A stretch of DNA of 64,000 nucleotides from an uncultured virus (IMG/VR IMGVR_UViG_3300037297_000328) (Duplodnaviria; Heunggongvirae; Uroviricota; Caudoviricetes), in IMG/VR virus record IMGVR_UViG_3300037297_000328; one strand, 5' to 3'. A model generated the notes under the pieces. The model was not told where the DNA came from. It was given only the letters and a program-made list of their open reading frames with translations, and did not search any database. The position numbers and the translations under genes are program-made. This document shows, piece after piece, positions 17,943 through 36,919 of this stretch; position 1 is the stretch's first letter, and every line of letters starts with the position of its first letter.

Positions 17943-18105
17943 ATGAGTAAAATACCTTGGACAGAAAAAACCTGGAACCCAATTATAGGATGCAAATGTG
18001 CCATTTTTCTTTAAGCAGTGGGGTGAAATTAAATTTTTTGAAGTGGGAGCAGAACCAGATATTCACTACTCTTCAAAAGAAATTGATACGCTCGATAGCA
18101 ATTAA
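17943..18105 (+). pseudogene. internally deleted Gp37/Gp68 (DUF5131) gene
   Basis: N-terminus MSKIPWTEKTWNPIIGC joined out of frame to C-terminus ANVPFFFKQWG. Confidence 0.8.
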
Positions 18106-18236
18106 TGCTAACGGTACTTGTGTAAATTTCAGTGCCATTATAGCCGATAAACTAATTTAAAAGTAAAATATTATGAATAAGCAAATAATTATCAAAAAGT
18201 ATGAAGGCAAGGCATTGAATTTACATAATGTTAGTT
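18106..18236 (-). repeat. attC-like site A1
   Basis: tgctAAC ggtacttg TGTAAATTTCAGTGCC...GGCATTGAATTTACA taat GTTagtt. Confidence 0.8.
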
Positions 18237-18487
18237 GCCGTAAATTTCAAGGTGAATTAATTGGAAGAAAAGATATTGACGGAACACCAATTAAAGAAGG
18301 TGATATTGTCAAAGTATATGATAAAATTGAGTGGGGTGGAATTGTTACATATAACGAAAAAGCCTGTGGTTTTTGTTTTGATGAAGAAGATATTGGTGAA
18401 TATTCTTTTGCGTGGGGTTGGGGTGAATCTCAGGAATCACATCCTGAAGAAAGTTGGAAAGTTGTTGGCTCTATTTATGGCAACTAA
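18173..18487 (+). CDS. YopX-like protein (cassette gene)
   Basis: IGRKDIDGTPIKEGDIV...KVVGSIY; start inside A1, stop in TAAC core. Confidence 0.75.
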   Translation: MNKQIIIKKYEGKALNLHNVSCRKFQGELIGRKDIDGTPIKEGDIVKVYDKIEWGGIVTYNEKACGFCFDEEDIGEYSFAWGWGESQESHPEESWKVVGSIYGN

Positions 18488-18599
18488 CATCGAGTATAAC
18501 AAACGTTTAAAACTGACTTAGAATTGAAAAATAGAATTAAATAATAACCACTTACCAAGCAACAACGAACTGATAAATGTTTGTTATATATTGTTAGGC
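18482..18599 (-). repeat. attC-like site A2
   Basis: aactAAC atcgag TATAACAAACGTTT...AAATGTTTGTTATA tatt GTTaggc. Confidence 0.8.
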
Positions 18600-18632
18600 T
18601 TTCGTTTTGTGCGGTGGGATAAAACTAAGATT

Positions 18633-18944
18633 ATGGATGTAGCAGAATTTATTACAAAAAAAATTAAAATACATTCTAAATGTCCTGAATGTAAAAAAAG
18701 AAAATTAGTAGAAGTGCATAGTACAAGTATTGATGCTTTTTATGATGAAAAAGGAAACATTAAAGACACCGTATGGTTCTTTCTAAATATTGATATTGTA
18801 TGTAAAAACAAAAAATGTAAATATAGAAGGTGTTTGGCAAGTGATAATGCTGGTAGTGAAAGTATAAAAGAAATAATGAAAAGTAAATATAAAGATACTA
18901 ATACTGGTATAATGCTTAGACGTGCGTTGGCAAATGAAGCCTAA
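18633..18944 (+). CDS. Cys-rich cassette protein
   Basis: CPEC...CKNKKC; stop in TAAC core. Confidence 0.6.
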   Translation: MDVAEFITKKIKIHSKCPECKKRKLVEVHSTSIDAFYDEKGNIKDTVWFFLNIDIVCKNKKCKYRRCLASDNAGSESIKEIMKSKYKDTNTGIMLRRALANEA

Positions 18945-18998
18945 CGGTACTTGTGTAAATTTCAGTGCCATTATAGCCGATAAACTAATTTAAAAGTA
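18941..18998. repeat. 58-bp exact copy of 18108-18165 (truncated attC-like site)
   Basis: ctaacggtacttgtgtaaatttcagtgccattatagccgataaactaatttaaaagta occurs twice. Confidence 0.9.
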
Positions 18999-19072
18999 TG
19001 GATGATAAAGGTAGGTAAAAAAGAAGCAGGAAGGATGCTTGACGATAAAATATATAACGAATATCCAAATTT

Positions 19073-20689
19073 ATGAAAAAATACTACAGCAAAATTAAGG
19101 TTGATAAATATGAAAGTATGCAAACCCTTGATTGGTATGCTACAAATATTTATCATCCAACGCAGCAGGACGAAGACGGAAAATTTAAAAAAGGGGCCTT
19201 GCGATTACGCGATACGCACCGCGAAATGTTTTCGGCATTGCTGGTGTTGCTTATTACGAAAACAATTTCCAGAAGAAATAAAATTAATGAATATAGCGAT
19301 AAATATATTCCTTATAATATAGAGAAAGGGTTGGAACTAAAAGTTCAACCCTACGAAATTAAGGCCATTATTACCAGGGGGCTTAAGAATGCAATAAGTC
19401 TTCAGACGACAAAAAACAGGATGGATAGGCTTGAAGAGTTAGGGGTTATTTCACGAAGATGGATCCGGAGCGAAGGAGTATTTTCCATCCTGTTTAATCC
19501 CCGGTTTTTAACAATAAAATGCGGAGAATCAGGAAAATTAATAAAGACCAATGATTTTGAAAATAACTCAGAATCAGTAGTATACAAAAGTAAAAATGAA
19601 AATTTAATAAATACTACTAAATATAAAAATAAAATAATACAGGATGAACCTGTTAACAAAAGGAATGTGCATTCGCACATTAATAATTCTTTAAAACCAA
19701 AACATCTTAAAAACCAAAACAAAACAGTGCAGAATAATTCTTTTGGTTCAACCAAAAATACAGATACTCCTCATGAACCCACCATTGCGGTTGAACGTAG
19801 TAATAGTATAACCAATGAAAAATTATGCCCGGAACTAGAGTCTTACAAGAAAAAAGCCGTAAATAAATTTTATGAGAAGTTTATTATGGCATTTTGGCAG
19901 CATTTGACCTCAATGTATTTAATTACACAGGCTCCAAGGCAAACATTGCACTATGTGGAGCAGGCTTATCAATCATTAATGACTGATGACTATTATTTTG
20001 GCGGATGCACCACAGAAAAACAGATAAATTATCAGTTAAACAAATTATTAAAGGCATTAAAAAGCACTATTAACCTGGTGAACGCCAGGAAAAAAGAAAA
20101 TACACGGTGGACAATGGATCACGTATATCCAAATCAATTTCTTTGTTTGCCGCCGGAAAAGGGTAAAATGCGTTTTAAAAATGCATTGCTGCATATCGAG
20201 GAATTTATGGCAATACATGATGAAATGGATATGCTTATTGAAAAACAGATGCAAAAATCGAGGGATAAAAAGAAAAAAAGCAGATATAATTATATCATTT
20301 CTCAAATTATAGCATGGATTATGCTAAATGCAAAAGAAAAAACGGTTTCACTTATTCGACAAGCAGGAGAATATCTGCGAGATATTCACCCAGAATTAAG
20401 CATGAAGCTACACACGGATTTTAACAATCCGTACCTTGTTAAAAAAATTATAAATGCGCATAAAACATTTGATTACAAGCTTATTAATGAGTGTTTTACT
20501 ACGCAAGCCCAAATTCAGGAAGAAATAAATAAACTATTGCCAAAAATGCAACAGTTAATTAGGCAAAATCGATTAACTATTAGTCCTAAAATGTTGATTC
20601 ATTTCAAAATCAGAGGTGATGAAATGAAACCAATCCCTAAAAAATATAACAAATATACACTAAACTTAATCAACAGGTTTTTACGTTAA
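19073..20689 (+). CDS. putative replication initiator / winged-helix protein
   Basis: ISLQTTKNRMDRLEELGVISRR wHTH-like segment, N/K-rich linker, helical C-terminus. Confidence 0.45.
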   Translation: MKKYYSKIKVDKYESMQTLDWYATNIYHPTQQDEDGKFKKGALRLRDTHREMFSALLVLLITKTISRRNKINEYSDKYIPYNIEKGLELKVQPYEIKAIITRGLKNAISLQTTKNRMDRLEELGVISRRWIRSEGVFSILFNPRFLTIKCGESGKLIKTNDFENNSESVVYKSKNENLINTTKYKNKIIQDEPVNKRNVHSHINNSLKPKHLKNQNKTVQNNSFGSTKNTDTPHEPTIAVERSNSITNEKLCPELESYKKKAVNKFYEKFIMAFWQHLTSMYLITQAPRQTLHYVEQAYQSLMTDDYYFGGCTTEKQINYQLNKLLKALKSTINLVNARKKENTRWTMDHVYPNQFLCLPPEKGKMRFKNALLHIEEFMAIHDEMDMLIEKQMQKSRDKKKKSRYNYIISQIIAWIMLNAKEKTVSLIRQAGEYLRDIHPELSMKLHTDFNNPYLVKKIINAHKTFDYKLINECFTTQAQIQEEINKLLPKMQQLIRQNRLTISPKMLIHFKIRGDEMKPIPKKYNKYTLNLINRFLR

Positions 20690-20789
20690 AAAAAGATAAA
20701 ATTATGGATATAATTTACAGAACAATAGGTTTTATTATTGTTCTGATTGCAAAACCTATATACTACCTTGTACGAAAAATATTTAAAAA

Positions 20790-21104
20790 ATGGAAAGACG
20801 AATAATTCATATTGACGAAATGGTGCAAATCTGCGGATATTTCACCACTGAAACTACTGTAAATAACGGCTATGGATGTAAACATCCCGACCAAGAAGAA
20901 CAAGATGAAGATTTATATACTGGAAGGCAACATGGCAAATGCTATGCATTCAATTGTCCACTTGCTCCAGAAGCAGATTTGCAGGACATGAAAGAATTGG
21001 ATCAGGAATTATATGATGAATGGAAGAATGAAGAATACGATCCTACCGAAATGGGCGGTAATTATTTGGTAGTTGATGAGAGTGTTTTGAGAAATGCATT
21101 TTAA
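20790..21104 (+). CDS. Cys-containing hypothetical protein
   Basis: CGYF...NNGYGCKHP...GKCYAFNCPLA; stop in TAAC. Confidence 0.65.
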   Translation: MERRIIHIDEMVQICGYFTTETTVNNGYGCKHPDQEEQDEDLYTGRQHGKCYAFNCPLAPEADLQDMKELDQELYDEWKNEEYDPTEMGGNYLVVDESVLRNAF

Positions 21105-21179
21105 CTCTGAGTTAGACAGCTTTTAAATGCTATTTAACGGTTTGGCTAAGAAGCGTATAGGCAACGTAATACTTAATAA

Positions 21180-21410
21180 ATGGAAAGAATAATAGAATTT
21201 TTGACAAAAAACGGATACAAAGAAGAAACAGAAAGAGGAGCCGAATACAGAAGTTTCTTTAAAGATGGATTAAGCTCCATTGATGTAAATAATGATGAAA
21301 TAGTATTCATTGGGGATAAAGGCGACTGGCTTCATATACCTGTGAATTACTATGCTTTGATTGGCGCATTATTACACCACAGGCAATTGGCGACTAATTA
21401 TGTAGCCTAA
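21180..21410 (+). CDS. cassette hypothetical protein
   Basis: Flanked by taggcaacgtaat / attatgtagcctaac. Confidence 0.65.
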   Translation: MERIIEFLTKNGYKEETERGAEYRSFFKDGLSSIDVNNDEIVFIGDKGDWLHIPVNYYALIGALLHHRQLATNYVA

Positions 21411-21457
21411 CGGTGATAATAAACCGTCGTTTTAATGCGGTTTATTATGTGTTACCG
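21405..21457 (-). repeat. minimal attC-like site A4
   Basis: gcctAAC ggtg ATAATAAACCG tcgttttaatg CGGTTTATTAT gt GTTaccg. Confidence 0.85.
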
Positions 21458-21492
21458 GCTGACACGGATTATTAACAACAAAAGATTATTAA

Positions 21493-22332
21493 ATGAACGG
21501 ACTTAGCAATAACAGTTTTTTGAGCGTTGGCAAAAACGGCTTTGCCGAACTTACACACGGTTCACTTTTTAGCGGTATTGGTGGATTTGAGGAAGGTTCA
21601 GAGCTGGCAGGAATAAAGACTATTTGGAATTGTGAACTTGAAGATTACCAAAGTAAAATATTAAAGCAGAATTACAATGATAGCAAACAATATAGAGATA
21701 TTACAGAGGCAGAAATCACCGAAAGAGTTAGCATTATTAGTGGAGGCTTTCCGTGCCAAGACATTAGCGTTGCGGGAAAAATGGAAGGTATCAAAGGAAA
21801 GCGCAGTGGGCTTTGGAGTGAGATGTTTAGAATTATTCGGAACATTAGACCTTACTACGTCATCATTGAAAACTCGCCAGCTTTGCTTATTCGAGGATTT
21901 GAACAATTCTTATGCGACCTTTCCGAAATCGGGTATAATGCAGAATGGCAAGTGCTTTCAAACATCGCTTTTGGATACCCACACAAAAGAGAAAGATTAT
22001 ACGCTATTGCCTACGCCAACGAAATCGGATTACAAAGCGACATTTGCACAGATAGAGGCTTTAACTCGATATTTAGAAAGTGGACACCAAATCAAAATGA
22101 TGGATATTCTTTGTCAAAAAGGATTCACGAAATCGGAGCGTGTACAGATATTCGAAATGGTGATGGGTTTCAATCCTGGACACACAGAGTTGGGAGCATA
22201 GGAAATGCAGTAAACCCAACACTTGCCTACTATTTATTTGAATGTATTAAATATCATTTTTTAAAAAGGAGGGAAGAAAAAACTGTTATTGCGGACTTAC
22301 AGCAGATAACTCGATTAAATGTACCGGCGTAG
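21493..22332 (+). CDS. C5 cytosine DNA methyltransferase, alpha polypeptide (cassette gene)
   Basis: LFSGIGG, GGFPCQD, ENS, RER, GNAV; motif IX absent. Confidence 0.92.
   Translation: MNGLSNNSFLSVGKNGFAELTHGSLFSGIGGFEEGSELAGIKTIWNCELEDYQSKILKQNYNDSKQYRDITEAEITERVSIISGGFPCQDISVAGKMEGIKGKRSGLWSEMFRIIRNIRPYYVIIENSPALLIRGFEQFLCDLSEIGYNAEWQVLSNIAFGYPHKRERLYAIAYANEIGLQSDICTDRGFNSIFRKWTPNQNDGYSLSKRIHEIGACTDIRNGDGFQSWTHRVGSIGNAVNPTLAYYLFECIKYHFLKRREEKTVIADLQQITRLNVPA
21677..22201 (+). CDS. overprinted beta polypeptide of the C5 methyltransferase (M.EcoHK31I-like)
   Basis: 174 aa alternative frame ending FEMVMGFNPGHT (motif IX-like). Confidence 0.75.
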   Translation: MIANNIEILQRQKSPKELALLVEAFRAKTLALREKWKVSKESAVGFGVRCLELFGTLDLTTSSLKTRQLCLFEDLNNSYATFPKSGIMQNGKCFQTSLLDTHTKEKDYTLLPTPTKSDYKATFAQIEALTRYLESGHQIKMMDILCQKGFTKSERVQIFEMVMGFNPGHTELGA

Positions 22333-22339
22333 TGTTTGC

Positions 22340-22472
22340 CGGTAACGTTGAGCGTATGAGCCTGTTGGCGTGTTAATTAGAATTACAAACTTCAAAAAAC
22401 AGATATAAAATGAGTAAAGAAAATAAAGCACAAGATACCACTAAGCCGATGGCGTATGACGCATTGTTACCT
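22340..22472 (-). repeat. attC-like site A5
   Basis: Minus strand: AAC aatgc GTCATACG...CTCATAC gctcaac GTT, with an extra base in the first L box. Confidence 0.8.
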
Positions 22473-22784
22473 GCCGTTATTTTAGACAACGAAGGATATC
22501 CAACTGATGAGTTTTTAGAATTTATTAGAAACTATACACATGAAACAATGCCAATACTTGATTTTATTGAAATATTGTGCGATGGGTGGTATCATGGAAA
22601 TTGGGGATATAAGCTCCATCGAAAGTATGCAGGTAAGAGAAAGTTTGAATTACATACAGGTGGATGGAGTGGTAACGAAGATACAATATCTGCACTTATA
22701 AGTAACATTTGGCTTACTCATTTTAAGATGAAATACGTGCGGTGGGAGACAGGGGGACACTACTACTTTGAAATTACTTGCTAA
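22410..22784 (+). CDS. cassette hypothetical protein
   Basis: LHTGGWSGNE..I...GGHYYF; start inside A5. Confidence 0.75.
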   Translation: MSKENKAQDTTKPMAYDALLPAVILDNEGYPTDEFLEFIRNYTHETMPILDFIEILCDGWYHGNWGYKLHRKYAGKRKFELHTGGWSGNEDTISALISNIWLTHFKMKYVRWETGGHYYFEITC

Positions 22785-22788
22785 TGGC

Positions 22789-22918
22789 AGGTAACAGTTG
22801 ACAATATGAAATGTATGGGATTAAAAGCGGTATCCTATCCCGATACATTAATGATAATTAAAGGTAGTACCGTACAATTTGGCACTAACACCAGTATATT
22901 TTATATTGTGTGCTAGGC
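22789..22918 (-). repeat. attC-like site A6 (core mutated, GCT for GTT)
   Basis: AATATGAAATGTATGG...CCAGTATATTTTATATT arms. Confidence 0.7.
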
Positions 22919-22936
22919 ACTTTAAAAATTACGGGT

Positions 22937-23134
22937 ATGAAAATAGAAGTATCACAAGATTGGTTTAAGAAAGTGTTAATTGAAAAATTAAAAGAAATTG
23001 ACAAGAAATTGATTAAAGCAGATGAAATGACATACTCAGAAAAAGAATTAAGTGAGGATAAGATACACGATGTGTGGAGTGAAATTAGAGATTCTAATTT
23101 AGAGATAGAAGAACTTATTGAGGCATTGGAGTAA
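22937..23134 (+). CDS. small acidic cassette protein
   Basis: Flanked by 21-bp near-perfect complementary ends. Confidence 0.6.
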   Translation: MKIEVSQDWFKKVLIEKLKEIDKKLIKADEMTYSEKELSEDKIHDVWSEIRDSNLEIEELIEALE

Positions 23135-23144
23135 TTTTTATTGT

Positions 23145-23275
23145 GCCTAACGGACAGCGGTATGCACTGGCCGGATTAACTGGCAGAAAGTTTAATTAAA
23201 TGACAAACATTATGAATACATCGAAACCTAAATTAAAAGTACAAACCCCGGCTTGCGTATTACCGCATATTAGCG
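23145..23275 (-). repeat. attC-like site A7
   Basis: GCGGTATGCA.TGGCCGG...CCGGCTTGCGTATTACCGC; core ATT for GTT. Confidence 0.75.
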
Positions 23276-23562
23276 GTATGTTTAAAGTGGTGGCAAGCGA
23301 TGGGGAGTTTATATTTCCAAAACTATGCCCTTATTGCGGTGGTGATTTATTTTATAGAGGTACTGGATGGATTGAAGATGAGCGAGGGCAGTGGAAAGTT
23401 GATATGATGGATTGCGAATGTTCAACCATGCCAGACTTTGATGATGAAGAATGGGACGACTGGATGAATAACCATAGTGAAATGCCTTATGTGCATCAGT
23501 TACCAGTTGATCAGGCAGTAATGAAATGGATTAATGCGCGGTTTCGCTTTGCGATGGATTAA
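23200..23562 (+). CDS. zinc-ribbon cassette protein
   Basis: CPYCGG; start inside A7. Confidence 0.65.
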   Translation: MTNIMNTSKPKLKVQTPACVLPHISGMFKVVASDGEFIFPKLCPYCGGDLFYRGTGWIEDERGQWKVDMMDCECSTMPDFDDEEWDDWMNNHSEMPYVHQLPVDQAVMKWINARFRFAMD

Positions 23563-23567
23563 ATTAC

Positions 23568-23700
23568 CGCTAACGGCTGCGTTATGCGGTCGTTGCCGAT
23601 ATATCAAATTAGTAATAACTTAAATACGAGGATAAAATTATGAACACAATAAAAAATATCAACGAGGAAAAAGGCAATGCCATATTACCACTTGTTATAG
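23568..23700 (-). repeat. attC-like site A8
   Basis: cgctAAC ggctgc GTTATGCGGTCGTTGCC...GGCAATGCCATATTAC cactt GTTatag. Confidence 0.75.
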
Positions 23701-23873
23701 AGCGTTTTAATATTGACATTCCTTATACTTGCGGGACATTAAAGCGAATAGAATTTAAAACCACAGGGAACGATAAGGTAACTCATTCTTGGTTAGTCCT
23801 GCATGGATTAAAAACTGGAGCTGGTAAAGAATCATTGACCATACACTTAGGCAGGGCTTTAAATGCTCTATAA
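23640..23873 (+). CDS. cassette hypothetical protein
   Basis: Start inside A8; stop in terminal TAAC. Confidence 0.65.
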   Translation: MNTIKNINEEKGNAILPLVIERFNIDIPYTCGTLKRIEFKTTGNDKVTHSWLVLHGLKTGAGKESLTIHLGRALNAL

Positions 23874-23910
23874 CTACTATATATAAGATTAACTTTTTAA
23901 ACAACTTAAT

Positions 23911-24084
23911 ATGAACAAGAAAGGAATATCAACTTTAGGAAAATTTAAAAATAATCTTAAACTTAAAAATTATTCTGATAATACTATTAATATATATATA
24001 CACTATATCTCAGGATTTATTTTAAGCTTTAATAAGCCTGCTCTTCATATAACTATTTTAGATATTAGACAATACAATGCCTAA
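23911..24084 (+). pseudogene. truncated tyrosine integrase N-terminal (SAM-like) domain, IntI-like
   Basis: MNKKGISTLGKFKNNLKLKNYSDNTINIYIHYISGFILSFNKPALHITILDIRQYNA*, matching the L.L.NYS..T...Y.....F pattern. Confidence 0.7.
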
Positions 24085-24571
24085 ATACAATTATAATTAT
24101 ATATTATACCTTACTGATGGACAGAATAAACAACGATGGCCGGCATTTAGTAAGCTTACTGAACAAAAGGCGATAGAACGTTTTAAAAAGCGTATTTTTA
24201 ACGAACGTTTTAATTTTCCAATTGCCCGGATTTACATTAACAATAAGTTAATGCATTCATTTGTTCAAGGTGTAGAGGTTCCAGTGGGAAAAAGTGGGGA
24301 AAAGTGGTATGGACCAAATATTTCGGCATTTAAATTAAAAATGATATTGTTGGATGGTTCGTTTATTGGTCCGTTTTACAGTAATTCTCATTTAGACATT
24401 AAAATGCAGCATGATACGTTAATTAGTGAATATTGTAAAGGAAAATACAACCGAAAATTTATTTCAGCTTTGATTTACTATATTCAGGAATCGCAAGAGC
24501 AGCTTGCAACACAGATAAAATATAATATCAATACAAATAAATATAGTATTAATAAAAATATAAAACTATGA
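24077..24571 (+). CDS. hypothetical protein
   Basis: 164 aa ORF. Confidence 0.55.
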   Translation: MPKYNYNYILYLTDGQNKQRWPAFSKLTEQKAIERFKKRIFNERFNFPIARIYINNKLMHSFVQGVEVPVGKSGEKWYGPNISAFKLKMILLDGSFIGPFYSNSHLDIKMQHDTLISEYCKGKYNRKFISALIYYIQESQEQLATQIKYNINTNKYSINKNIKL

Positions 24572-25122
24572 TAACTTTACAATTTACAGAAAATTTATTT
24601 AACCAATTATTAGAAATTATTCCAATAAATATTATTAACAAATTGGACAAGGATAGCGTGGAGCATTCCGGCGTATTAGATATAATTTACGCACGTGATG
24701 GCGATAATATTCAAGTTACTAGTGATTTAATAAATCAAATCACTAATGCATTTTATGCAAAAGACGAGAAATCACTTGACTTGAAAATTGAAGAGCAATT
24801 AAAAAATATTGCAATATTTGTAAGCAATTATTTTAATTTCGATATAAACTGTCTGAAACTAAAATCACGTAAAAGATTATATGTTTACGCTCGATATTAC
24901 ACCTGGGCGCTGGCAACAAAATATATTGATTTTCATCCAAGTTCCGAAAGTCATTTTTTTGAAGTAATAGGGCTTTATTTTAACAGGGATAGGACACAGG
25001 TATTACATGCATTTAAAGAGTTAGAAAAAGTGAGAGAATTAATTAAAGGGTATGTAGAGATAAGAAGTGCCTACGTGTCTGATATTTTAGGAAAGAAATA
25101 TAAACTATTAAAAATTGCATAA
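24568..25122 (+). CDS. protein with DnaA C-terminal-like HTH
   Basis: KSRKRLYVYAR...IGLYFNRDRTQVLHA. Confidence 0.7.
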   Translation: MITLQFTENLFNQLLEIIPINIINKLDKDSVEHSGVLDIIYARDGDNIQVTSDLINQITNAFYAKDEKSLDLKIEEQLKNIAIFVSNYFNFDINCLKLKSRKRLYVYARYYTWALATKYIDFHPSSESHFFEVIGLYFNRDRTQVLHAFKELEKVRELIKGYVEIRSAYVSDILGKKYKLLKIA

Positions 25123-25690
25123 TATGAAAGTACGTTATGATATTGTTAAAAAGAATGGCCGTAGAGAGCCATGGACAGGAATTTTTAAAAACGAAGAATT
25201 AGCAAATAAATGGTATCAAACACATGGGCAATTTTGGATAAACCTAGGCTATATATTAGCACCAGTAATACTACATGAACATATCTTAAAAAAATCAGCT
25301 AATAATAGTGAGAATATTAAACGTTACCAACGCAGTAATAAAAAAGGATATATTGTGCCTGCAAATTCTGTGCATGTTGATGCTCCGTCAAAATGGGCTT
25401 GCCCGTTAAAGCTAATGGGGGATACTATTTTTATAAATGCAAATCACCGCAGAAAAATATTAAGCCCTTGGGTTATTTTAAAAGAAAATGCTACAATGAA
25501 TGACTTGATTGATGCATATAAAAAATTATGGAGTAATAGAAAGTTATCAAATTATGATATGCAGCACTGGCAGAAAAAGCTTAAAGAAATGCCATTGCAT
25601 GAGTTAAAGGGAATGAATTTAGTCTCCTGGTGTAAATTGGACCAGCCAAGTTATGTTGATGTATTAATTGAAATCGCTAATAAGAAGTAA
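25115..25690 (+). CDS. DUF4326-like protein (degenerate motifs)
   Basis: VDAPSKWACP and LKGMNLVSWCKLDQPSYVDVL. Confidence 0.65.
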   Translation: MHNMKVRYDIVKKNGRREPWTGIFKNEELANKWYQTHGQFWINLGYILAPVILHEHILKKSANNSENIKRYQRSNKKGYIVPANSVHVDAPSKWACPLKLMGDTIFINANHRRKILSPWVILKENATMNDLIDAYKKLWSNRKLSNYDMQHWQKKLKEMPLHELKGMNLVSWCKLDQPSYVDVLIEIANKK

Positions 25691-25770
25691 AATAAACGGT
25701 CGGGTATTGGCTTTCGTTGCCTATGCTCAAATAACTACGAATGATTATTAAACGCTTAAAAATTAAATAT

Positions 25771-26103
25771 ATGAACACATTTTCACAAATAGTACAAGAC
25801 AATGAAGTTAATACCTTGTTACCTGCCGTATCATTTCAATTTTTATATCGAAAGAATAATAAGGAATTTTCACAGGAATTTGTTTCAAAGAAAAAAACAC
25901 TAATTGAAGCGATAGATGATTTTTTAACTCGGAAAGAGAATTTGTACGATATAGATGAAGAAGTTAAAGTTACCTATCAAGATGGTAAGCAAGAAATGGT
26001 ACAAGTTGATGCTCGCCAAGATTGGGATTCAAGTTGGTATTTTGTTCACGAAAATAATATTATTTGTGGCAATGGATATGCCTGTCAGCATAATGGCAGC
26101 TAA
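25771..26103 (+). CDS. cassette hypothetical protein
   Basis: Start inside attC loop; stop in TAAC. Confidence 0.6.
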   Translation: MNTFSQIVQDNEVNTLLPAVSFQFLYRKNNKEFSQEFVSKKKTLIEAIDDFLTRKENLYDIDEEVKVTYQDGKQEMVQVDARQDWDSSWYFVHENNIICGNGYACQHNGS

Positions 26104-26153
26104 CGGATACGCTTATATTTAGTGCTGATTTTGAAACAAAAAACTTCAATAGG

Positions 26154-26341
26154 ATGAAAATACTAATAGCTTGTGAGGAATCTCAAATTGTAACGAAAGC
26201 ATTTAGGGAATCAGGATTTTTGGCGTTCTCTAACGATATTATTGATTGTTCCGGAGCAAAACTTATGAAGGCATCGCACAAGCTATGGCGAACCAATGGG
26301 GAAAATTCCTTATGGAACGCAAACGTAGCATTTGTGCATAA
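26154..26341 (+). pseudogene. internally deleted phage cytosine methyltransferase-like gene
   Basis: N-terminus MKILIACEESQ...DIIDCSG joined out of frame to C-terminus RSKTYEGIAQAMANQWG. Confidence 0.75.
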
Positions 26342-26499
26342 CGGGTGGCCGTATGGTGGCGTACCGGATTTGAAAAACACAACTATCAATAAACAATGAA
26401 CTTAAATAGAAATCCAAACTTTCGCAAAGCACCGAGGCCGGTATGCACTATATGGCGTGTTACCGCCCGTTTTTCCCTTTGCGTCCTTAAATTTTTTAT

Positions 26500-27381
26500 A
26501 TGAAAGTAATAGTAGCATATTCAGGAGGTAAAGATTCTCAGGCTTGTTTGATTTGGAGCGTAAAACAATACGGAGTCAAAAATATTGAGGATGTTTTTTG
26601 TGATACTGGATGGGAGCATCCAAAAACCTATGAGCATATACAGACTACTACAAAAAATTTAGGCGTAAAATTGGTTACAGTTAAAAGCAAAAAATACGAT
26701 GGAATGGTTGATTTGGCAGAAAAGAAAAAAAGATTCCCAAGCTCACAAGCAAGGTTCTGTACTTCTGAATTAAAATCCATTCCATTTATCGACTATGTTT
26801 TGGAGCAAAAAGAACACTTAACAGTGATTCAGGGAATAAGGGCTTTAGAAAGCCACAACCGTAGCCAAATGCAAAAGCAATGTAGGTTTTTCAAATACTA
26901 TTTTGAGCCATATAATGCAAAAGGCAAAAAACATACATACAGGAGTAAAGATGTTAAGGAATGGGTATCCAAATATTCAGATGATATTTTGCGACCTGTA
27001 TTTGATTGGACAGGACAACAGGTGATTGATTATATAATTGAAAACGGACAAGAACCAAACGAACTATACAAGCAAGGTTTTAAACGTGTTGGTTGCTTTT
27101 CCTGTATAATGAGTGGACATAAAGAAGTATATGAAATTATAAAACGATACCCAGAGCGATTTAATGAAATTATTGAACATGAAAATAGAATTGGTTCCAG
27201 TTTCTTTAAAATAGATTTTGTTCCTGATTATGCACAAAGTGGAATTTGTGATAGAATCGGAAAGAAATATACAATTGGTGAAGATGTGAGAAAGTATTTA
27301 GAGGCTAAAAACCAAACAATGGATTTATTTGGTGAAGATAGCCCGATTTCATGTTCAAGTTATTATCACTTATGCGAGTAG
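26500..27381 (+). CDS. PAPS reductase-family protein (cassette gene)
   Basis: YSGGKDS, DTGWEHP, RFCTSELK, GIRALES, RVGCFSC. Confidence 0.92.
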   Translation: MKVIVAYSGGKDSQACLIWSVKQYGVKNIEDVFCDTGWEHPKTYEHIQTTTKNLGVKLVTVKSKKYDGMVDLAEKKKRFPSSQARFCTSELKSIPFIDYVLEQKEHLTVIQGIRALESHNRSQMQKQCRFFKYYFEPYNAKGKKHTYRSKDVKEWVSKYSDDILRPVFDWTGQQVIDYIIENGQEPNELYKQGFKRVGCFSCIMSGHKEVYEIIKRYPERFNEIIEHENRIGSSFFKIDFVPDYAQSGICDRIGKKYTIGEDVRKYLEAKNQTMDLFGEDSPISCSSYYHLCE

Positions 27382-27474
27382 CTCTTTGCGTCCTTAAATG
27401 GGCGGTAACGTGTTGTGTATTCGGTCATTGCTGTTTTGAAAGATAGTACAAATTTAGATTAAAGAACATAAGAT

Positions 27475-28089
27475 ATGAATATAAATACAGTTACAAAAAA
27501 GCCACAAGGCAATTCCGTATTACACGGTGTTAGTGGCAGTTATTCCTATGATAACCGATACTTGCATAGGTTTTTTAAAATGAATACCGCACCGCTGTTA
27601 ATGAGCATGAAAGTATTTCCGAATATTAAAGAAATAACCGAGAGTGTGGGAGCATTTGTGGCAATACAAGACCACTTAATTGATAAATATGTAAGCCGAA
27701 CAGATGAAGTTGATGTATATGTAGTAGGTGACGGACACAGCCCACGTACAGGTGCGTTGATAGCTTGCCTTACCAAATGGAATGTTAAAAGCATAGACCC
27801 ACAAATGCGTGGGAAACAATGGAATATTAAACGCTTAGAAACATATAAAAACAAAGCAGAAGAATTAAGCTTTGAAGGTAACAATAATAGTGCGGTGGTT
27901 GTTTGCGTACACTCCCATGCTAAAATAAGCGACTGCTTTAAAATGCTGCACGGATATTCGGAAATACATTTGGTTAATATACCCTGCTGCTTTAAAGCCG
28001 ATATCGATAAAAAACCTAATGTAAGTTACACCGATTTTGGCATACAAAGTGAAAAGCAAAAAGTTGACATCTACTTTAATTGCCACTAA
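27475..28089 (+). CDS. SAM-dependent methyltransferase-like cassette protein
   Basis: VYVVGDGHSPRTG, SIDP, HSH, IPCC. Confidence 0.6.
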   Translation: MNINTVTKKPQGNSVLHGVSGSYSYDNRYLHRFFKMNTAPLLMSMKVFPNIKEITESVGAFVAIQDHLIDKYVSRTDEVDVYVVGDGHSPRTGALIACLTKWNVKSIDPQMRGKQWNIKRLETYKNKAEELSFEGNNNSAVVVCVHSHAKISDCFKMLHGYSEIHLVNIPCCFKADIDKKPNVSYTDFGIQSEKQKVDIYFNCH

Positions 28090-28225
28090 CGGTTTTAATA
28101 AACACAGTATGGCAGCCCACCATACTTTAAACAATGGCAGAACCTTGCCCCTGCCATGTGGCAGTTATTCCTATGATAACCGATAATTGGGTTTATTTAT
28201 TATTAGGGCGAGTTAATTTTAAAGT

Positions 28226-28426
28226 ATGAAAACTTGTAAATACATAGCAATTAAAGTAGATGGTTTAAACCATTGGTTGTGGTTTGAGACCGAGAAGGTA
28301 ACTGAAAAAGATGGTAGATTCATTGGATTAGCTGGATGGGGTGAAGCTGGTAATTATACCGAAATAGATATTGATACTAATGAGATTATTGGAAGAATAC
28401 ATTCTGATTTTCCGCAGTATCGTTAA
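28226..28426 (+). CDS. cassette hypothetical protein
   Basis: Flanked by attagggcgagttaa / ttaattcgcctcaac. Confidence 0.65.
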   Translation: MKTCKYIAIKVDGLNHWLWFETEKVTEKDGRFIGLAGWGEAGNYTEIDIDTNEIIGRIHSDFPQYR

Positions 28427-28536
28427 TTCGCCTCAACGGTACGGCAATATGATTAGTTGCCATACCATAAACTTTAAAATTTAGTAATAACCTGACAGGC
28501 AATTAATTATATTGCTTATTATAAATCTGATAAATT

Positions 28537-28714
28537 ATGAGGCGTTTTAGAGCAGGATACTACAGATACAAAGGATACTTAGTTAGAAATCATGGATATT
28601 TCGTACCCGATAAATGCGTGTGGTGGGAGGCTATTAACGAATTAACTGAGAAGCTGATTACCACGCAAAAACAAAAAAAGAACTTAAACAACTTATTGAC
28701 GAAGGTGCGGAATA
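28537..28714 (+). pseudogene. frameshifted cassette gene
   Basis: ...WWEAINELT continues in another frame as EADYHAKTKKELKQLIDEGAE*, ending at the cassette end. Confidence 0.55.
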
Positions 28715-29005
28715 ATTTATTTGTTTATAACTACTATATATAACAACCTTTAATTATTGTATTGATAATCAATAAAATAAAAATATCAACTTTAGGAAAA
28801 TATAAAAAATATCCTAAACTTTAAAATTATTTTATGGATATAATAAATAAAATAAAATACGGAGTAATTGTTGTTGAATATAATAAACGTGCAAAATCAA
28901 AATATCCTTATGTTTTTGAATGGATAGAAGGGAAGAAACTTTTGGCTTGTACAGCAGATTGGGGATTTAATAGTCTTGATGATTTTGTTTCATTTTACAA
29001 TGAGG

Positions 29006-29554
29006 TTATTTCTTCTCAGCAATAACTAAATAAGTAACTTGTTTACCCTGAAATAGCATAATTGTTTTAATATTTAATATTTTACCGTATCGTTGATGGA
29101 TTTCTATTATATTAGGAAAAGCGATGTAAGTATCTGGTTGTTTAGAGCTTGGCAATGTAGCATAAATAGTGATACCTGTAGGTATTTCGTTAAGGATAAG
29201 TAAATCATTTTCAAAATATTCAAGCACTTCAATGGCTATGATGGTATTATACCTGCCAGATTTTAACGGCGAATAATCTTTTGAAATGTCGTGGTGTAAA
29301 AATCTTGATGGGAAGAACCCTTTTTGAGCTTCATCTATTAATTTTTTATCGCTATCAATACCTTGTTCATAGTGATATTTTTCATTGATTAGCTCTCTGG
29401 CTAAATTACCATTTTTGCATCCAATTTCAAGTACACGATCATAATGCTGCAGGTAATGCATTATTTGCTGTAATATTCTATATTTTACGCTGTCATTAAG
29501 CCTCCTGTTGCAATCAAATTGATATTCGTTTCGGTGTAGCATCTTAAAATCCAT
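29006..29554 (-). CDS. class I SAM-dependent methyltransferase
   Basis: VLEIGCKNG, GID, EVLEY. Confidence 0.85.
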   Translation of the reverse strand: MDFKMLHRNEYQFDCNRRLNDSVKYRILQQIMHYLQHYDRVLEIGCKNGNLARELINEKYHYEQGIDSDKKLIDEAQKGFFPSRFLHHDISKDYSPLKSGRYNTIIAIEVLEYFENDLLILNEIPTGITIYATLPSSKQPDTYIAFPNIIEIHQRYGKILNIKTIMLFQGKQVTYLVIAEKK

Positions 29555-30245
29555 TAATTTTAACAATATTTTTGCTCCGATGATATCCACGTGAATTTTT
29601 ACCGCAAAACGGGTCAAAAAGGCTCCCAATGTCAAGTAATGATATATTCATTCGTTCATTGTATTGAGAATAAATATCGTTAATTAATATTTTGGCCGGC
29701 ATACTGGCACACACCAGGAATAATATGTCTTTATTTTTAATGGCAGCACTATTAGCTAATTTGCTGCACGAATAAGACATTTCTTTATAAGCTTTCCAAC
29801 AATTTAATTCCGGGATAACAACTTGCCCGTTGAGTGTTATGTAGTTTTTCATTTCATCTAAATAGCTAGGACCAACCAATATGATATTATGCCTGGTATT
29901 TATTAAATCAAATAAGGTAGCTATTTTGCCTCGTGCGCTGGCGCGATGTAATATGTCTGCATTAAACCATTTTAAATCATTTAAATTGTGTTTTTTCTTG
30001 AATTCTTTAATTTCTTTACCTTTAATTCTCATCGCCAAATCCTGCATGCCAATATAATAGCCCGGCTTACTGATAAGTACTTTTCTTAATGCTTCACTCA
30101 TATCCGGATAATAAATATGTCCATCACAATTATGAGGCGTTTTGGTGCCTAATATTGCATTCCATTCCCCATCGCCCATTCTTATGAATGTAACGGGTTT
30201 CTTTTTTACGATTTTATCCAGCAATATGTCGTACGTTAATATCAT
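29544..30245 (-). CDS. GT-D fold (DUF1792-like) glycosyltransferase
   Basis: FIRMGDGEW, ILVGP, LDIGSLFD. Confidence 0.75.
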   Translation of the reverse strand: MILTYDILLDKIVKKKPVTFIRMGDGEWNAILGTKTPHNCDGHIYYPDMSEALRKVLISKPGYYIGMQDLAMRIKGKEIKEFKKKHNLNDLKWFNADILHRASARGKIATLFDLINTRHNIILVGPSYLDEMKNYITLNGQVVIPELNCWKAYKEMSYSCSKLANSAAIKNKDILFLVCASMPAKILINDIYSQYNERMNISLLDIGSLFDPFCGKNSRGYHRSKNIVKINGF

Positions 30246-30793
30246 TGCTTTTTATATTTAAATACTTCAAAATCTTTTCGATAATAGTCGTACACATGGT
30301 TAAGCATATTATCACTATAATACCAAAGATATTGCATCCGATCATTTGATTTATTATATGCTTTAAACTCTACTTTTTTATCGAATAATTTATATAGTTC
30401 ACTCCAGAAATAAGATTCAAACCTAAATACATGGTCTATCATCACTTTATCTTGCTTATTGCAAATAAATTCGTGCTGAGGTTTTAATAATACATTATTT
30501 TTATGATTTAAGTTCTTGCATAAATAATCAAACCCATTTTCATAATATATATAATATCTGCTTTTTTGGGGATGTTCATTATCGTACCATTTCATAAATT
30601 CATAGGCGCTTACCAGGCGGTCAAAAGGATTTCGAACAATAGCAAATGTTGTAAAGTTGGGGAATTTTTCATGGTAAAAACGATAATCTTCATGATTGCC
30701 TGTTACATCCATGTTAAAATTTTTTGCCACTGCTACACCGGATGTTTTAGGAATATGAATAAATGCTATTTTTTTACTTCGTAATATTGCCAT
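30242..30793 (-). CDS. sulfotransferase family 2
   Basis: FIHIPKTSG, VRNPFDRLVSAY, DFEVFKY. Confidence 0.9.
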   Translation of the reverse strand: MAILRSKKIAFIHIPKTSGVAVAKNFNMDVTGNHEDYRFYHEKFPNFTTFAIVRNPFDRLVSAYEFMKWYDNEHPQKSRYYIYYENGFDYLCKNLNHKNNVLLKPQHEFICNKQDKVMIDHVFRFESYFWSELYKLFDKKVEFKAYNKSNDRMQYLWYYSDNMLNHVYDYYRKDFEVFKYKKQ

Positions 30794-30798
30794 AATTA

Positions 30799-31434
30799 TT
30801 AGTGCTTCCAGCTATCCTTACTGTATCCTAAATAACGAAAATCATCCTGCATAAGATGATATACAAAGATAGCCTTTTTTTTGTTATAATAACTTTTATA
30901 GCCTAAATGGTTCCCTTTTCTTATGTGAGCTAGTTGTGTTTGAGGAAAGCCAATTATTTGACAAAAATTGTCAAAATCGCATTGCAGGTTCTCAAACCGT
31001 ATAGTAAAATTAACATCTAATCGCCCATTTACAATTAAGTCTTGTGTTAGCGGCCTGGTAATATGATATTTTATTGGTTCTGATATTTTAGTTAAATCTA
31101 TTTCCATGAGCTGTTCAAAAGTATATTGCGAAAGCAAATGTTTCCATGCGCTAATAAACCGGTCATAAGGATTTCTTATAATTAGTACCTTAAAAGCACT
31201 TTCCCATATTTGAGGGTACTTTTGTTTAAAAGTTAAAATTCCTTCGGCATAGCCAACATTATCGCTATGTACTTCGATAATTTTGCCAAATTTTGGCTTA
31301 ATTGTAATATCATTATGCTCTATAAAATCATTTCCGGGCGATTTGCCTGCAAAAGCAAAATGAAAAGAAGAACTTCCAACTTTCCCGGTGCGTATCCAGA
31401 TAATATGCTGCTTGTTCCAATCTATCTTTTTCAT
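30799..31434 (-). CDS. sulfotransferase family 2
   Basis: KVGSSS, RNPYDRFISAW, RFENLQ.DF, DFRYLGY. Confidence 0.85.
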   Translation of the reverse strand: MKKIDWNKQHIIWIRTGKVGSSSFHFAFAGKSPGNDFIEHNDITIKPKFGKIIEVHSDNVGYAEGILTFKQKYPQIWESAFKVLIIRNPYDRFISAWKHLLSQYTFEQLMEIDLTKISEPIKYHITRPLTQDLIVNGRLDVNFTIRFENLQCDFDNFCQIIGFPQTQLAHIRKGNHLGYKSYYNKKKAIFVYHLMQDDFRYLGYSKDSWKH

Positions 31435-31518
31435 TTAATTGTGTTTAAAAGTGTACATATTTCTTGTTGTAAAACATTAAAACGATTTTACAACACGGTA
31501 TATAATTAATAAAAACAC

Positions 31519-31809
31519 TTACTTCTCGGTAAATTTTGAGAGTTGTTCTATTAATTCAACTGCATCAGATTTTAAAATATCCAACGCTTTTTTGCTTGTT
31601 ACATCACCCAATACTTCTTTTATAGCATCTTCATCATCACCTATACCGTAGTCGCCAGACCAAACCCATTCTACATCGTGCAATGCTTTTGCTACCTTTT
31701 CAAGATGCTTACCAAATGCCCTTTGTAAAGGTGTGTTGTTTTTGTTTTGTAAATCACTTGCTACTTCATCAACTTTATAAGTCAAGTAATCCATACTTCC
31801 TCCGCTCAT
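31519..31809 (-). CDS. cassette hypothetical protein
   Basis: MSGGSMDY...LHDVEWVWSGDYG. Confidence 0.75.
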   Translation of the reverse strand: MSGGSMDYLTYKVDEVASDLQNKNNTPLQRAFGKHLEKVAKALHDVEWVWSGDYGIGDDEDAIKEVLGDVTSKKALDILKSDAVELIEQLSKFTEK

Positions 31810-31870
31810 ATTTTAAAATTTTATCGTTATTAAATCGTGTTTTTACTAATCATGTACCCATCCGTTAGGT

Positions 31871-32122
31871 TTAATTTGTTTTAAGTTGAACAAGCCCCGT
31901 CTTTTGTTTAGGCAGTAAAGTTTCCCAGCAACTACCTAACCCATACTCTTTACCAAACTTAAAACAAACTCCGCTCACATCTTTCCATATCATTAGTTGG
32001 TATTTTGTACCACCGTGCTTTCTATTATTCCACAAGGTTATTGTCTTATCGCTAAACCTAACAATGTATATAAAAACATTGCTAAGTGTGTACCAATTTT
32101 TACGTTTATATCTTTTATTCAT
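31871..32122 (-). CDS. cassette hypothetical protein
   Basis: Start inside attC loop. Confidence 0.6.
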   Translation of the reverse strand: MNKRYKRKNWYTLSNVFIYIVRFSDKTITLWNNRKHGGTKYQLMIWKDVSGVCFKFGKEYGLGSCWETLLPKQKTGLVQLKTN

Positions 32123-32179
32123 AATTGTAAGTGTTTTAAAGTTATTACTCTTAATCCGCAACGTTTCATACACTCAACG

Positions 32180-32467
32180 TTAGCAACCATTAAAAGACCG
32201 CCACAACTCGACAAACTTTTCTCTTTTCATTTGCCTTAATTCTCTATTGTCAGCATACTTTCTTTCGTGATAGATTTCAATTTCACTACCGCCAGTGAAG
32301 TAAACTGAATATCTCAACCAAGAACTATCACCACCTACTTTTCCAACTCTTTCCACTTTGCGTAAATCAATCGTGTCTCCGCAAATGTCGATAATAGGAT
32401 TAACGGCTGCTAACAAACGGTTAGCATCATTGCCGTTTTCGTGGTTAATTGAATTTTTGTTTTCCAT
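32180..32467 (-). CDS. cassette hypothetical protein
   Basis: Start inside attC loop; stop in core. Confidence 0.65.
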   Translation of the reverse strand: MENKNSINHENGNDANRLLAAVNPIIDICGDTIDLRKVERVGKVGGDSSWLRYSVYFTGGSEIEIYHERKYADNRELRQMKREKFVELWRSFNGC

Positions 32468-32629
32468 ATCAAATTTTGTTTTTAAGTGAATGTTTTGTGT
32501 TCCAAAGTCGGCAACGAACGCCAACCGCCAAAACGTTAACTACAAGCGGGTTTGGTGGCTCGTATTTAAGTTCCTGCGTATGCGAAGAAAAAAAATAAAA
32601 GCCCCCCGCTTTAGGTTTTTCAAACCCAT

Positions 32630-33418
32630 TTATATAAAAACAACATTTCCCTGTTTATGGTGTACATTATCAGAATCTAATATTTTCATCCATTCTTCTT
32701 TTGTTGCCGTGTAGCTTGCAAAAGTTGAGGCATTTTTAGCACACCATTCACAAAGTTCTTCAAATGTTTCAAATACTGGTGAACTTGGCGAACCTTCGCT
32801 TGTTGTTTCCCATAATTGAAATCCTTCGCCTGTTGGTGGTTCGTAATTTTCCCAATTTTCATATAATTCTTTTGCTCTTGAGTGTTGCCATTTTTCGCCT
32901 TCACCGTTACATTTAGGGCATGAAGATGATTTGCCTTCTCTTTTTAATCTTGCTTTTATACAATACCAAGCATTACTCGAATCATGTCCCATTCCTTTTA
33001 AATTCCACTCATTTACTTCTTTTGGTGTTGGAATATAACCGTTATTAAATGGAAGCCAGGAATTACCGCCATCGGCAATTTTTTGTTTTACTATTGCTTT
33101 TTGTTCGTCATTAATTGGAACTCTTGTGAAATCCCAAAGCCTATCAGCGTCTAAAAGTGCTTTTACATCATCTTCATTAAGGTTGTTATTCCAAGCGTTC
33201 GCATTGTATCTCCAACCTTCTCTGAAAGGATTAAGCTTATAATTTTCTTCTGTGTGATAGCCATACCACTCATCATGTAATTTATCATACTCTTTCGAGT
33301 ATCCGGTTCCTTTACAGTGTTTGCATTCATGCCTTGCGTGAGGGTTTAAATAACCACTCCAAATTTTTCCTATTTCCCAATCAAAATCTATTGGTACTCG
33401 TTTCATTGTTCGTCCCAT
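32630..33418 (-). CDS. cassette protein with CxxCxGxG zinc motifs
   Basis: CKHCKGTG, CPKCNGEG, EPPTGEGFQLWETTSEGSP.SPVF. Confidence 0.8.
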   Translation of the reverse strand: MGRTMKRVPIDFDWEIGKIWSGYLNPHARHECKHCKGTGYSKEYDKLHDEWYGYHTEENYKLNPFREGWRYNANAWNNNLNEDDVKALLDADRLWDFTRVPINDEQKAIVKQKIADGGNSWLPFNNGYIPTPKEVNEWNLKGMGHDSSNAWYCIKARLKREGKSSSCPKCNGEGEKWQHSRAKELYENWENYEPPTGEGFQLWETTSEGSPSSPVFETFEELCEWCAKNASTFASYTATKEEWMKILDSDNVHHKQGNVVFI

Positions 33419-33613
33419 GTTGTTTTTATATTTTAAATTTTCCCACCCTTCTTTTTATTTTTTTAGTGCTTCGTACAAGCGGCGGTGAGTAATTAATCCG
33501 CCAGTAGTTAACACGTTACATATTGCAAAAGCCAATTGGCGTTAGTGCGTTGAATCGGTCGATTGTGGTTGGCTTTCGACAACATGTAACCGGTCCGTTA
33601 GGCACAATAAAAA

Positions 33614-33871
33614 TTAAATAGCGTTGTGCAGTGCTTTTTCAATTTCTTCCTTACTGTAACCAAGCGCAATAAGTTCCTCGTGTTCCACAAAGTGCCTCAT
33701 TTCCCATTTACCGCAATGCTTACATTTTCGACTTACTTTAAATGTATCGCTCACGTATGTAATGTGTACGCCTATTTCTAATATTTCCCATTCGTGTGGC
33801 ATTGCTACCTCATATTCCCAAAATAGGAATCGTGCTTTGCGCTTTTCTCTTAATGGACATTTCCAGCTCAT
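33614..33871 (-). CDS. cassette protein with CxxC motif
   Basis: HEW...RKCKHCGK. Confidence 0.6.
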   Translation of the reverse strand: MSWKCPLREKRKARFLFWEYEVAMPHEWEILEIGVHITYVSDTFKVSRKCKHCGKWEMRHFVEHEELIALGYSKEEIEKALHNAI

Positions 33872-34004
33872 ATATTTAATTTTAAAAGTGCCTAATATGA
33901 TAAAACAAAGATTTTTGTATTACGCCTAGTTTTTTAAGTTTTTCAGCATAATTTAAATTGCAGCATTGTTTCTCTATATACATCTTATTAATTTTATTTC
34001 GTTT

Positions 34005-34238
34005 TTAGAACTCTTTCATTTTACGGTATTGCTTCAATTTTGCTATGGTCATATTTTGTTGTATAATTGTTTTGCTTAATTTTTGTGCTTGCCTTTGTTG
34101 GTTATAATCACCAGCAAATAATGATGCCTGCAAATTTTCATTAGTTAAAACAATTTTTTCTAAACCTGCTATTCCTTTATCCCACCCAACTTTTTCGCAC
34201 ATATCAATCAACATCTGAAAATCTGCATTTTTTTTCAT
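34005..34238 (-). CDS. hypothetical protein
   Basis: 77 aa ORF. Confidence 0.5.
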   Translation of the reverse strand: MKKNADFQMLIDMCEKVGWDKGIAGLEKIVLTNENLQASLFAGDYNQQRQAQKLSKTIIQQNMTIAKLKQYRKMKEF

Positions 34239-34263
34239 TATAATAATATTTAATAAGTTTTAA

Positions 34264-35992: not shown

Positions 35993-36009
35993 TATTTAAA
36001 ATTTTAAAT

Positions 36010-36621: not shown

Positions 36622-36622
36622 T

Positions 36623-36919
36623 TTATTTATTTTTCAACCACCATTCAAGTTCTTTCTCTATATCAAAATTTCCTGCAAATCCGTAACGAAAAGCACAGTG
36701 AAATGTAAAGTCTTTTAATTGTTTTCTTGTGAACATCGGTTCGTTTACTTTCTTTACCCATTTATTTTTTTCCCAGCAATTGATAGTAAAAGGAGAATAT
36801 GACTCTCTTCCAAGTTGTTTAGACCATGGAGTGTAAAAGAAACTTATATCTTTCTCATAGTTCTCTAATATAAGTCCTTTTTTCAGCCATCCATGTTTTT
36901 TTGTCACAATGTATTTCAT
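36623..36919 (-). CDS. hypothetical protein
   Basis: 98 aa ORF. Confidence 0.5.
   Translation of the reverse strand: MKYIVTKKHGWLKKGLILENYEKDISFFYTPWSKQLGRESYSPFTINCWEKNKWVKKVNEPMFTRKQLKDFTFHCAFRYGFAGNFDIEKELEWWLKNK

Follow-up and report, generated by a model that had tools for sequence, protein, structure and literature searches.

A truncated recombinase gene and an attI-like docking site at the end of a hairpin-bounded cassette array in a large phage probably infecting Bacteroidota

The window analysed here is the whole 64-kb stretch of DNA from an uncultured Caudoviricetes virus (IMG/VR record IMGVR_UViG_3300037297_000328). It is low in GC (about 29-38% per 2 kb) and filled with dense, small, co-oriented ORFs; its products include a GH108 lysozyme and a DUF4248 protein, and searches of the window for tRNAs and RNA families found none. 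On the plus strand, between 18108 and 23874, small ORFs alternate with CTAAC-G junctions (18108, 18485, 18941, 21407, 22792, 23147 and 23570) that were delineated with a covariance model and blastn, and that carry full hairpins at some positions and stubs at others. The last cassette of this array, array A, spans 23571-23874 (plus strand): it opens with TAAC at 23571 and a minimal, 10-bp hairpin (23566-23590, z -5.1), contains an ORF at 23640-23873, and closes with TAAC at 23871-23874, the TAA stop of the ORF being the TAA of this TAAC.

An earlier note on this DNA had placed an attI-like site at the end of array A, followed by a 57-codon ORF, and both are borne out. The docking site, TAAC-TACTATATATA, occupies 23871-23885 on the plus strand; its motif is kept in relatives, where it stands before full-length homologues of the recombinase described below and where unrelated left sides abut at TAAC. 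The 5' to 3' order is TAAC, TACTATATATA, a 25-nt spacer and the ATG at 23911 that opens the ORF (23911-24084, plus strand), which is confirmed from the sequence. The 57-aa peptide matches Pfam Phage_int_SAM_4, the profile that the note had suggested for a check, with an E value of 5.9e-6 and a score of 27 bits that coincides with the curated cut-off, residues 11-55 aligning to positions 4-49 of the 85 in the profile. A search of longer proteins returned two full-length relatives among 15 candidates, P0001 (269 aa, 65% identical) and P0002 (270 aa, 69% identical), each covering 96% of the peptide and each with both the SAM_4 and the Phage_integrase (PF00589) domains. When these two proteins were compared with the window by tblastn, residues 1-55 aligned to 23911-24075 (E 2e-18 and 6e-18; 38/55 identities), and weak traces appeared at 28768-28830 and 38172-38140. 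The ORF is thus identified, by homology over these 55 residues, as a true recombinase N-terminus that is cut after codon 55.

The remainder of the gene is missing from the window. Nothing credible corresponds to recombinase residues 56-270 in the 64 kb (tblastn, up to E≤100), and a Pfam scan of 111 window ORFs revealed no tyrosine-recombinase catalytic domain, in agreement with the note's statement that the window contains no intact integrase. An NYNY match in another frame after 24075, spotted by eye, was dropped, as tblastn did not report it. The truncation junction at ~24076 sits inside a single 24,863-bp contig that was assembled independently by Logan from the likely source run, so a misassembly of the window does not explain the truncation. 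There is no hairpin behind this point, and the next three genes (24077-25690) overlap without sites. We therefore read the loss as an ordinary deletion or illegitimate joining rather than a cassette insertion, which leaves it unexplained by the system's own chemistry. Elsewhere too the gene decays: in two relatives (L061 and L062) it has suffered internal deletions that join the N-terminal 27-64 codons to the C-terminal 70-100 codons, with the upstream arrays still there. None of the metagenome relatives of the 57-aa peptide (17 loci, top identity 57%) offered a syntenic genome in which the gene is intact at the corresponding place, and cultured phages gave no megablast match to 19000-29000 and no tblastn match to the peptide.

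The docking site recurs within the window. Its 15-mer, TAACTACTATATATA, has two exact matches on the plus strand, at 23871 and 28728, and one match with a single mismatch on the minus strand (38229-38215); at ≤3 mismatches there are 16 matches, compared with 6.75 +/- 2.67 in shuffled sequence, and 0/100 shuffles reach 16. The second copy (site B, 28728-28742, plus strand) is followed by a decayed recombinase start with an in-frame stop (28768-28849), identified through repeat D1 (77%) and tblastn, the whole feature spanning 28728-28849. The third (site C, TAACTATTATATATA, 38229-38215) lies on the minus strand and precedes a ~40-nt trace of a recombinase start at 38178-38140, in which tblastn aligned residues 7-17 with 9/11 identical; this feature extends over 38229-38140. 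Aligned with their trailing stretches, the three copies show 76% mean column identity and a near-invariant block, ATCAACTTTAGGAAAATTTAAAAAT; in copies two and three the recombinase start contains stops or ends after ~40-80 nt. About 165, 80 and 40 nt of recombinase gene are left at the three docking sites, and the 64 kb contain no catalytic domain; the gene appears to have been lost repeatedly.

The docking site has no hairpin of its own (DNA fold of 23864-23945, -0.7 kcal/mol, z +1.28), in contrast to the array hairpin at 21402-21460, which folds (z -3.84). Scans of 23400-24400 found fewer promoter-like sites than in shuffled sequence and no terminator. In the Logan assembly of the likely source run, 23809-24007 is represented by a separate 199-bp contig with a depth of 4.1, flanked by contigs of depth 15.2 and 14.7; AT-bias, population variation or a minority arrangement around the docking site may account for the low depth. 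A 37-nt part of the spacer behind docking site B (28753-28789) also matches very-high-depth contigs in two wetland runs (~800 and 82, compared with ~15 for the window phage). On neither side of the match do these contigs resemble the window, which suggests that they come from an abundant relative or that a short element is shared.

Two further sets of cassettes accompany array A. Array B (24077-28743, plus strand) begins with the hairpin-free three-gene block and continues through junctions at 25694, 26100, 27406, 28086 and 28433. A minus-strand set (31868-33606), delineated by covariance model and blastn, has TAAC junctions at 33600, 32538, 32182 and 31867 and includes an ORF at 32180-32524 that is shared with a recombinase-bearing relative (L014). 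The covariance model (R1) scored 28427-28527 at 52.4 bits (E 6.5e-8), 33606-33503 (minus strand) at 35.1 bits (E 1.8e-4), 18479-18600 at 22 bits and 21402-21460 at 19.8 bits. Sites of the long class were added by blastn at 22792-22918, 25695-25821, 32198-32058 (minus) and 32538-32411 (minus), the first being 81-85% identical to hairpin sites of two relatives (L001 and L010). Junctions 18108, 18941, 23147, 26100 and 27406 keep CTAACG and have no convincing hairpin. A strict TAAC..GTTA energy scan of the window passed only 21408-21454 within the arrays, the other sites being variants or stubs.

Array cargo includes two DNA methyltransferases and a gene resembling PAPS reductase; a PHROGs search of 24 array ORFs returned methyltransferases, PAPS reductase and otherwise unknowns. 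When 53 window ORFs were compared by tblastn with the recombinase loci, only three had matches, one of them the informative match to L014. Several smaller repeats and gene runs were also observed. The intervals 18100-18165 and 18933-18998 are 66-nt copies, 95% identical, that start with CTAACGG and lack a good hairpin, so that the same stub follows two different ORFs. A 45-nt piece from the start of the coding region of ORF 27475-28089 (27533-27577) recurs at 28158-28202 (84%), just past the CTAAC end of its own cassette. Downstream of docking site C, a long minus-strand run (29006-38099) of methyltransferases, two sulfotransferases and glycosyltransferases (GT11, GT8-like and GT-D-like) is interspersed with TAAC junctions.

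What an intact locus looks like can be seen in the full-length relatives. Those of P0002 comprise 67 loci in viral contigs and 8 in prokaryote genome contigs, including Flavobacteriaceae, Mesonia, Sunxiuqinia, Polaribacter and Prolixibacteraceae. The homologues are 266-270 aa long and, when their surroundings were checked for arrays, were found directly after arrays of the same hairpin sites. A docking motif lies about 40-50 nt upstream of the full-length recombinase in 55 of the 56 distinct upstream regions: in 50 by the regular expression YAAC-N(2-5)-WTATAT and in five as a variant (TATATGTA / TAACTACTATATGTA), with L073 alone lacking it. The consensus is aT-nnnnn-a-TAAC-TA-tta-TATAT-aaa, in short form TAAC-TAYTATATATA, and docking site A of the window agrees with it at all conserved positions. 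The layout in intact relatives, all on one strand, is a series of hairpin-ORF units, TAAC-TAYTATATATA, a spacer of ~40-50 nt and an Xer-like tyrosine recombinase of 266-270 aa. In L046, for example, five small ORFs, four hairpins, the docking site and an intact recombinase share one strand; ORFs 1-4 are each followed by TAAC-G(G/T)-stem-loop-stem-GTTA and ORF 5 by TAAC-TAGATTATAT, and the 266-aa recombinase starts 50 nt past the docking site. One further locus (L076), a 3.4-kb contig in a Promethearchaeota MAG bin, encodes a C-terminal fragment 62% identical to P0002; a viral or bacterial contig that ended up in the bin is a likelier explanation than an archaeal gene.

Among cultured phages the relatives are the genes annotated 'integrase' in Freya and Leef (Polaribacter phages) and Ingeline (Cellulophaga phage), which are 32-36% identical over their full length; they form a distant subfamily with another sequence after TAAC than in the system described here. 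Isolates of Freya, one phage species, range from 43,978 to 48,920 bp. In Freya_10 (L068, 1-4962), 10 small hypothetical ORFs lie just upstream of the 'integrase' and end in ...ttgttgCTAAC, and the Freya_1 record (L069) starts at AACACCCCTATAAC, directly after the CTAAC point of Freya_10.

The hairpins of these loci are a structured, oriented family tied to the recombinase strand. Each is built of TAACG, a bulge of 3-4 nt on the 5' arm only, a long stem, a variable loop, the returning stem and TGTTA, with size classes of 48, ~88 and ~125 nt. When the loci were scanned by DNA folding energy for hairpins of the form TAAC..GTTA, the recombinase strand had 123 upstream of the gene (in 409 kb) versus 14 downstream (in 572 kb), and the other strand had 28 and 5, respectively, mostly the same palindromes. 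RNAalifold folded an alignment of 51 sites into 22 pairs, 15 of which show compensatory double changes. A covariance model built from this alignment, which represents a single size class at the very loci that were then searched, yielded 245 hits (E≤0.01) across 1.09 Mb. The 51 training sites are counted among them, as are four pairs of duplicate loci. Of the 245 hits, 236 fall on the recombinase strand, where the hit table places 223 upstream and 13 downstream. In cultured phages, hairpin plus leader (L038:6410-6640) had no blastn match. This leader, a conserved stretch of ~100 nt after some of the 88-nt hairpins (L006 19010-19205, L035 3471-3666, L038 6422-6621 and L064 7902-8093), ends ATATTTATATATAA..AAA just before the ATG and may serve as a promoter or translation start that is carried by the cassette.

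Comparisons between loci indicate what is exchanged and where. A 422-nt unit, 97.6% identical between L019 (7996-8417) and L064 (7488-7909), runs from TAAC to the next ATAACG with differing flanks on both sides. A contig from a lagoon metagenome matches 27406-28092 of the window, the match starting at the T of TAAC, preceded by unlike DNA, and ending at the next CTAACGG. Such units, shared from TAAC to TAAC, define the mobile unit as hairpin first and gene second. The attC-type order, in which the site is 3' of the gene and the crossover falls at G/TT of the 3' box, is therefore not the order seen here, the hairpin being 5' of the ORF in shared units. Among the starts of 485 inter-locus HSPs, the T of TAAC is the favoured position (24 at offset 0, 15 at -1). 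Eleven groups of loci have a near-identical docking site and recombinase start (93-100% identity over 200 nt); in five of them homology stops at TAAC, with unrelated sequence (25-55% identity) in the 56 nt on its left, and the other six are duplicates. The window takes part in this variation: its ORF 32180-32524 (minus strand) matches L014:1-127 at 90% identity as far as CTAAC, where the two diverge, and L014 continues from there with a further small ORF, then a hairpin, its docking site and a recombinase gene that is intact. These comparisons indicate that gene content varies at the docking site, and the crossover probably lies at or within its TAAC.

The earlier note had taken the gene for an integron integrase, and here its reading stands only in part: the N-terminus is that of a recombinase, as the SAM_4 and tblastn matches indicate, and it is not that of an IntI. 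The pattern L.L..YS..T...Y..F, cited as typical of integron-type integrases, is general to Xer/IntI-type SAM-like domains. The proposal that this is where intI would sit divergently from attI holds by site polarity only, since the recombinase is on the cassette strand, downstream of the cassette ORFs. Four full-length homologues score 129-157 bits against the integron integrase family TIGR02249 (cut-off 265), matching it in two stretches, and 73-95 bits against NF011946 (cut-off 435). The best family is XerA_Arch (NF040815) at 169-187 bits (cut-off 220); XerC gives 130-151 (cut-off 335) and XerD 136-148 (cut-off 330). P0002 aligns end to end, in a single stretch, with Pyrococcus XerA (4a8e, 108.8 bits), and this alignment includes stretches that presumably represent the catalytic motifs conserved in tyrosine recombinases. 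With Vibrio IntI4 (2a3v) it aligns in two parts, residues 8-180 to chain positions 5-180 and residues 212-269 to 259-316. P0002 has 31 residues where IntI4 has 78, and the IntI-specific insertion (the I2 helix region), for which the homologues were also to be checked, is hence absent. Judged by its sequence, the enzyme is not an IntI, and it is integron-like by layout. The insertion is held essential for integron function (PMC8138268; I2 helix, PMC7790495), which keeps the action of this enzyme on hairpins putative and would make an insertion-free recombinase family tied to covarying hairpin arrays notable. The relevant passage of Smyshlyaev et al. 2021 (PMC8138268) describes the insertion as incompletely conserved in an 'integron-like' subgroup, and the authors of IntegronFinder, where they address recombinases without that domain beside attC sites, regard them as not IntI (PMC4889954).

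Together, these comparative results make it very probable that the interval 23868-24084 is what decay has left of the end module of an integron-like cassette array, carried by a large phage, most likely one infecting Bacteroidota. In such a system the recombinase would join the docking site to folded or extruded hairpins by strand exchange at TAAC, so that cassettes would be inserted and excised next to the recombinase's own gene. In the window phage this gene would have been lost at ~24076 by deletion or illegitimate joining, with two further losses in the same genome, and the arrays would now change only if another part of the genome, or a relative infecting the same cell, provided a recombinase. 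An intact copy may lie outside the 64-kb window.

Several features could instead be accommodated by ordinary lysogeny, with the recombinase as a phage integrase, TAAC-TAYTATATATA as an attP core and the hairpins as terminators or repeats between early genes. The cultured flavobacterial phage relatives are annotated 'integrase', and in the pertinent part of Bartlau et al. 2021 (PMC8776804) the gene in Freya, Leef and Ingeline figures as a sign of a temperate lifestyle only; moreover, the gene lies near the contig end in many viral loci, and copies occur in Bacteroidota genomes (Mesonia, Sunxiuqinia and Prolixibacteraceae). A relic of lysogeny sits poorly with three copies of site plus gene start within one genome, with a TAAC core and left-flank pattern common to hairpins and docking site, with the movement of whole one-gene, TAAC-bounded units between contigs, and with hairpins that are one-sided and one-stranded relative to the gene, and we consider it unlikely.

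The kinship of the enzyme would also fit a different role, in which a small Xer-type recombinase resolves phage multimers at the TAAC site and the arrays are unrelated to it. XerA, XerC and XerD, which act at dif, are indeed the nearest relatives of the phage enzyme in sequence and among solved structures, the top matches being XerA-type (NF040815 and 4a8e). Every Xer equivalog score nevertheless falls under its cut-off, the docking site lacks dyad symmetry, variable gene content breaks at that site, and the cassette arrays occur in viral contigs with no chromosomal dif context, which together render this role very improbable. The hairpins themselves recall IS200/IS605-type elements, which insert next to a short target, and palindrome-associated elements of this type, inserting 3' of a TAAC target with the recombinase as a bystander, would account for units that open with a hairpin right after a fixed tetranucleotide. 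The same TAAC, however, marks either end of a unit, the cargo consists of ordinary genes, no transposase family was hit in the scan of 111 window ORFs, and the hairpins are tightly linked, in a fixed orientation, to a single recombinase family that has a TAAC site of its own; we give this explanation the least credence, and almost none.

The integron-like reading can be set against classical integrons (IntI, attI and attC), especially the sedentary chromosomal ones. In both, a tyrosine recombinase lies beside a docking site that is not palindromic and beside an array whose units mostly contain one gene; the imperfect hairpins that bound these units end in conserved AAC/GTT and have variable, covarying stems with an asymmetric bulge, and breakpoints coincide with the conserved core. 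The combination of recombinase, docking site and hairpin-bounded cassette array is present in relatives, and in the window as a relic only. Unlike integrons, the phage system has a compact enzyme of 266-270 aa, without the IntI insertion and under the TIGR02249 cut-off, that is encoded downstream of and co-directionally with the cassette genes; the hairpin is 5' of the gene within the unit; and the carrier is a phage with a host phylum of Bacteroidota. The window also resembles CALINs in having several hairpin sites, scored here with our own covariance model rather than the published attC model, without a working recombinase in 64 kb, and it differs from them in that its site family is tied to a non-IntI recombinase with its own docking site. 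Clusters of attC sites without an integrase have been described in virulent phages, including a Polaribacter phage, and IntI1 can recombine them (Qi et al. 2023, PMC9892861, in the portion concerned with these clusters); the cassettes described there, like the window cargo, include DNA methyltransferases, and section 3.4 of that paper names no partner recombinase of the present kind. A full-text literature search, with subscription journals and supplements outside its scope, returned no description of the present pairing of recombinase and array.

We lean, if only slightly, towards a broader interpretation: that large Bacteroidota phages possess a gene-capture class of their own, in which a compact Xer-like recombinase without I2 would act on structure-defined hairpins at TAAC and dock hairpin-first cassettes before its own gene. 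Such a class would be an independent or ancestral solution, and the window, with three arrays whose recombinase genes are eroded to stubs, would reflect its life cycle. If this is true, these phages would offer a testable case of hairpin recombination without the IntI insertion, and the system would give them a means of modular accessory-gene swapping. The relic in the window also shows that arrays of this kind persist after their enzyme is gone, as CALINs do in bacteria.
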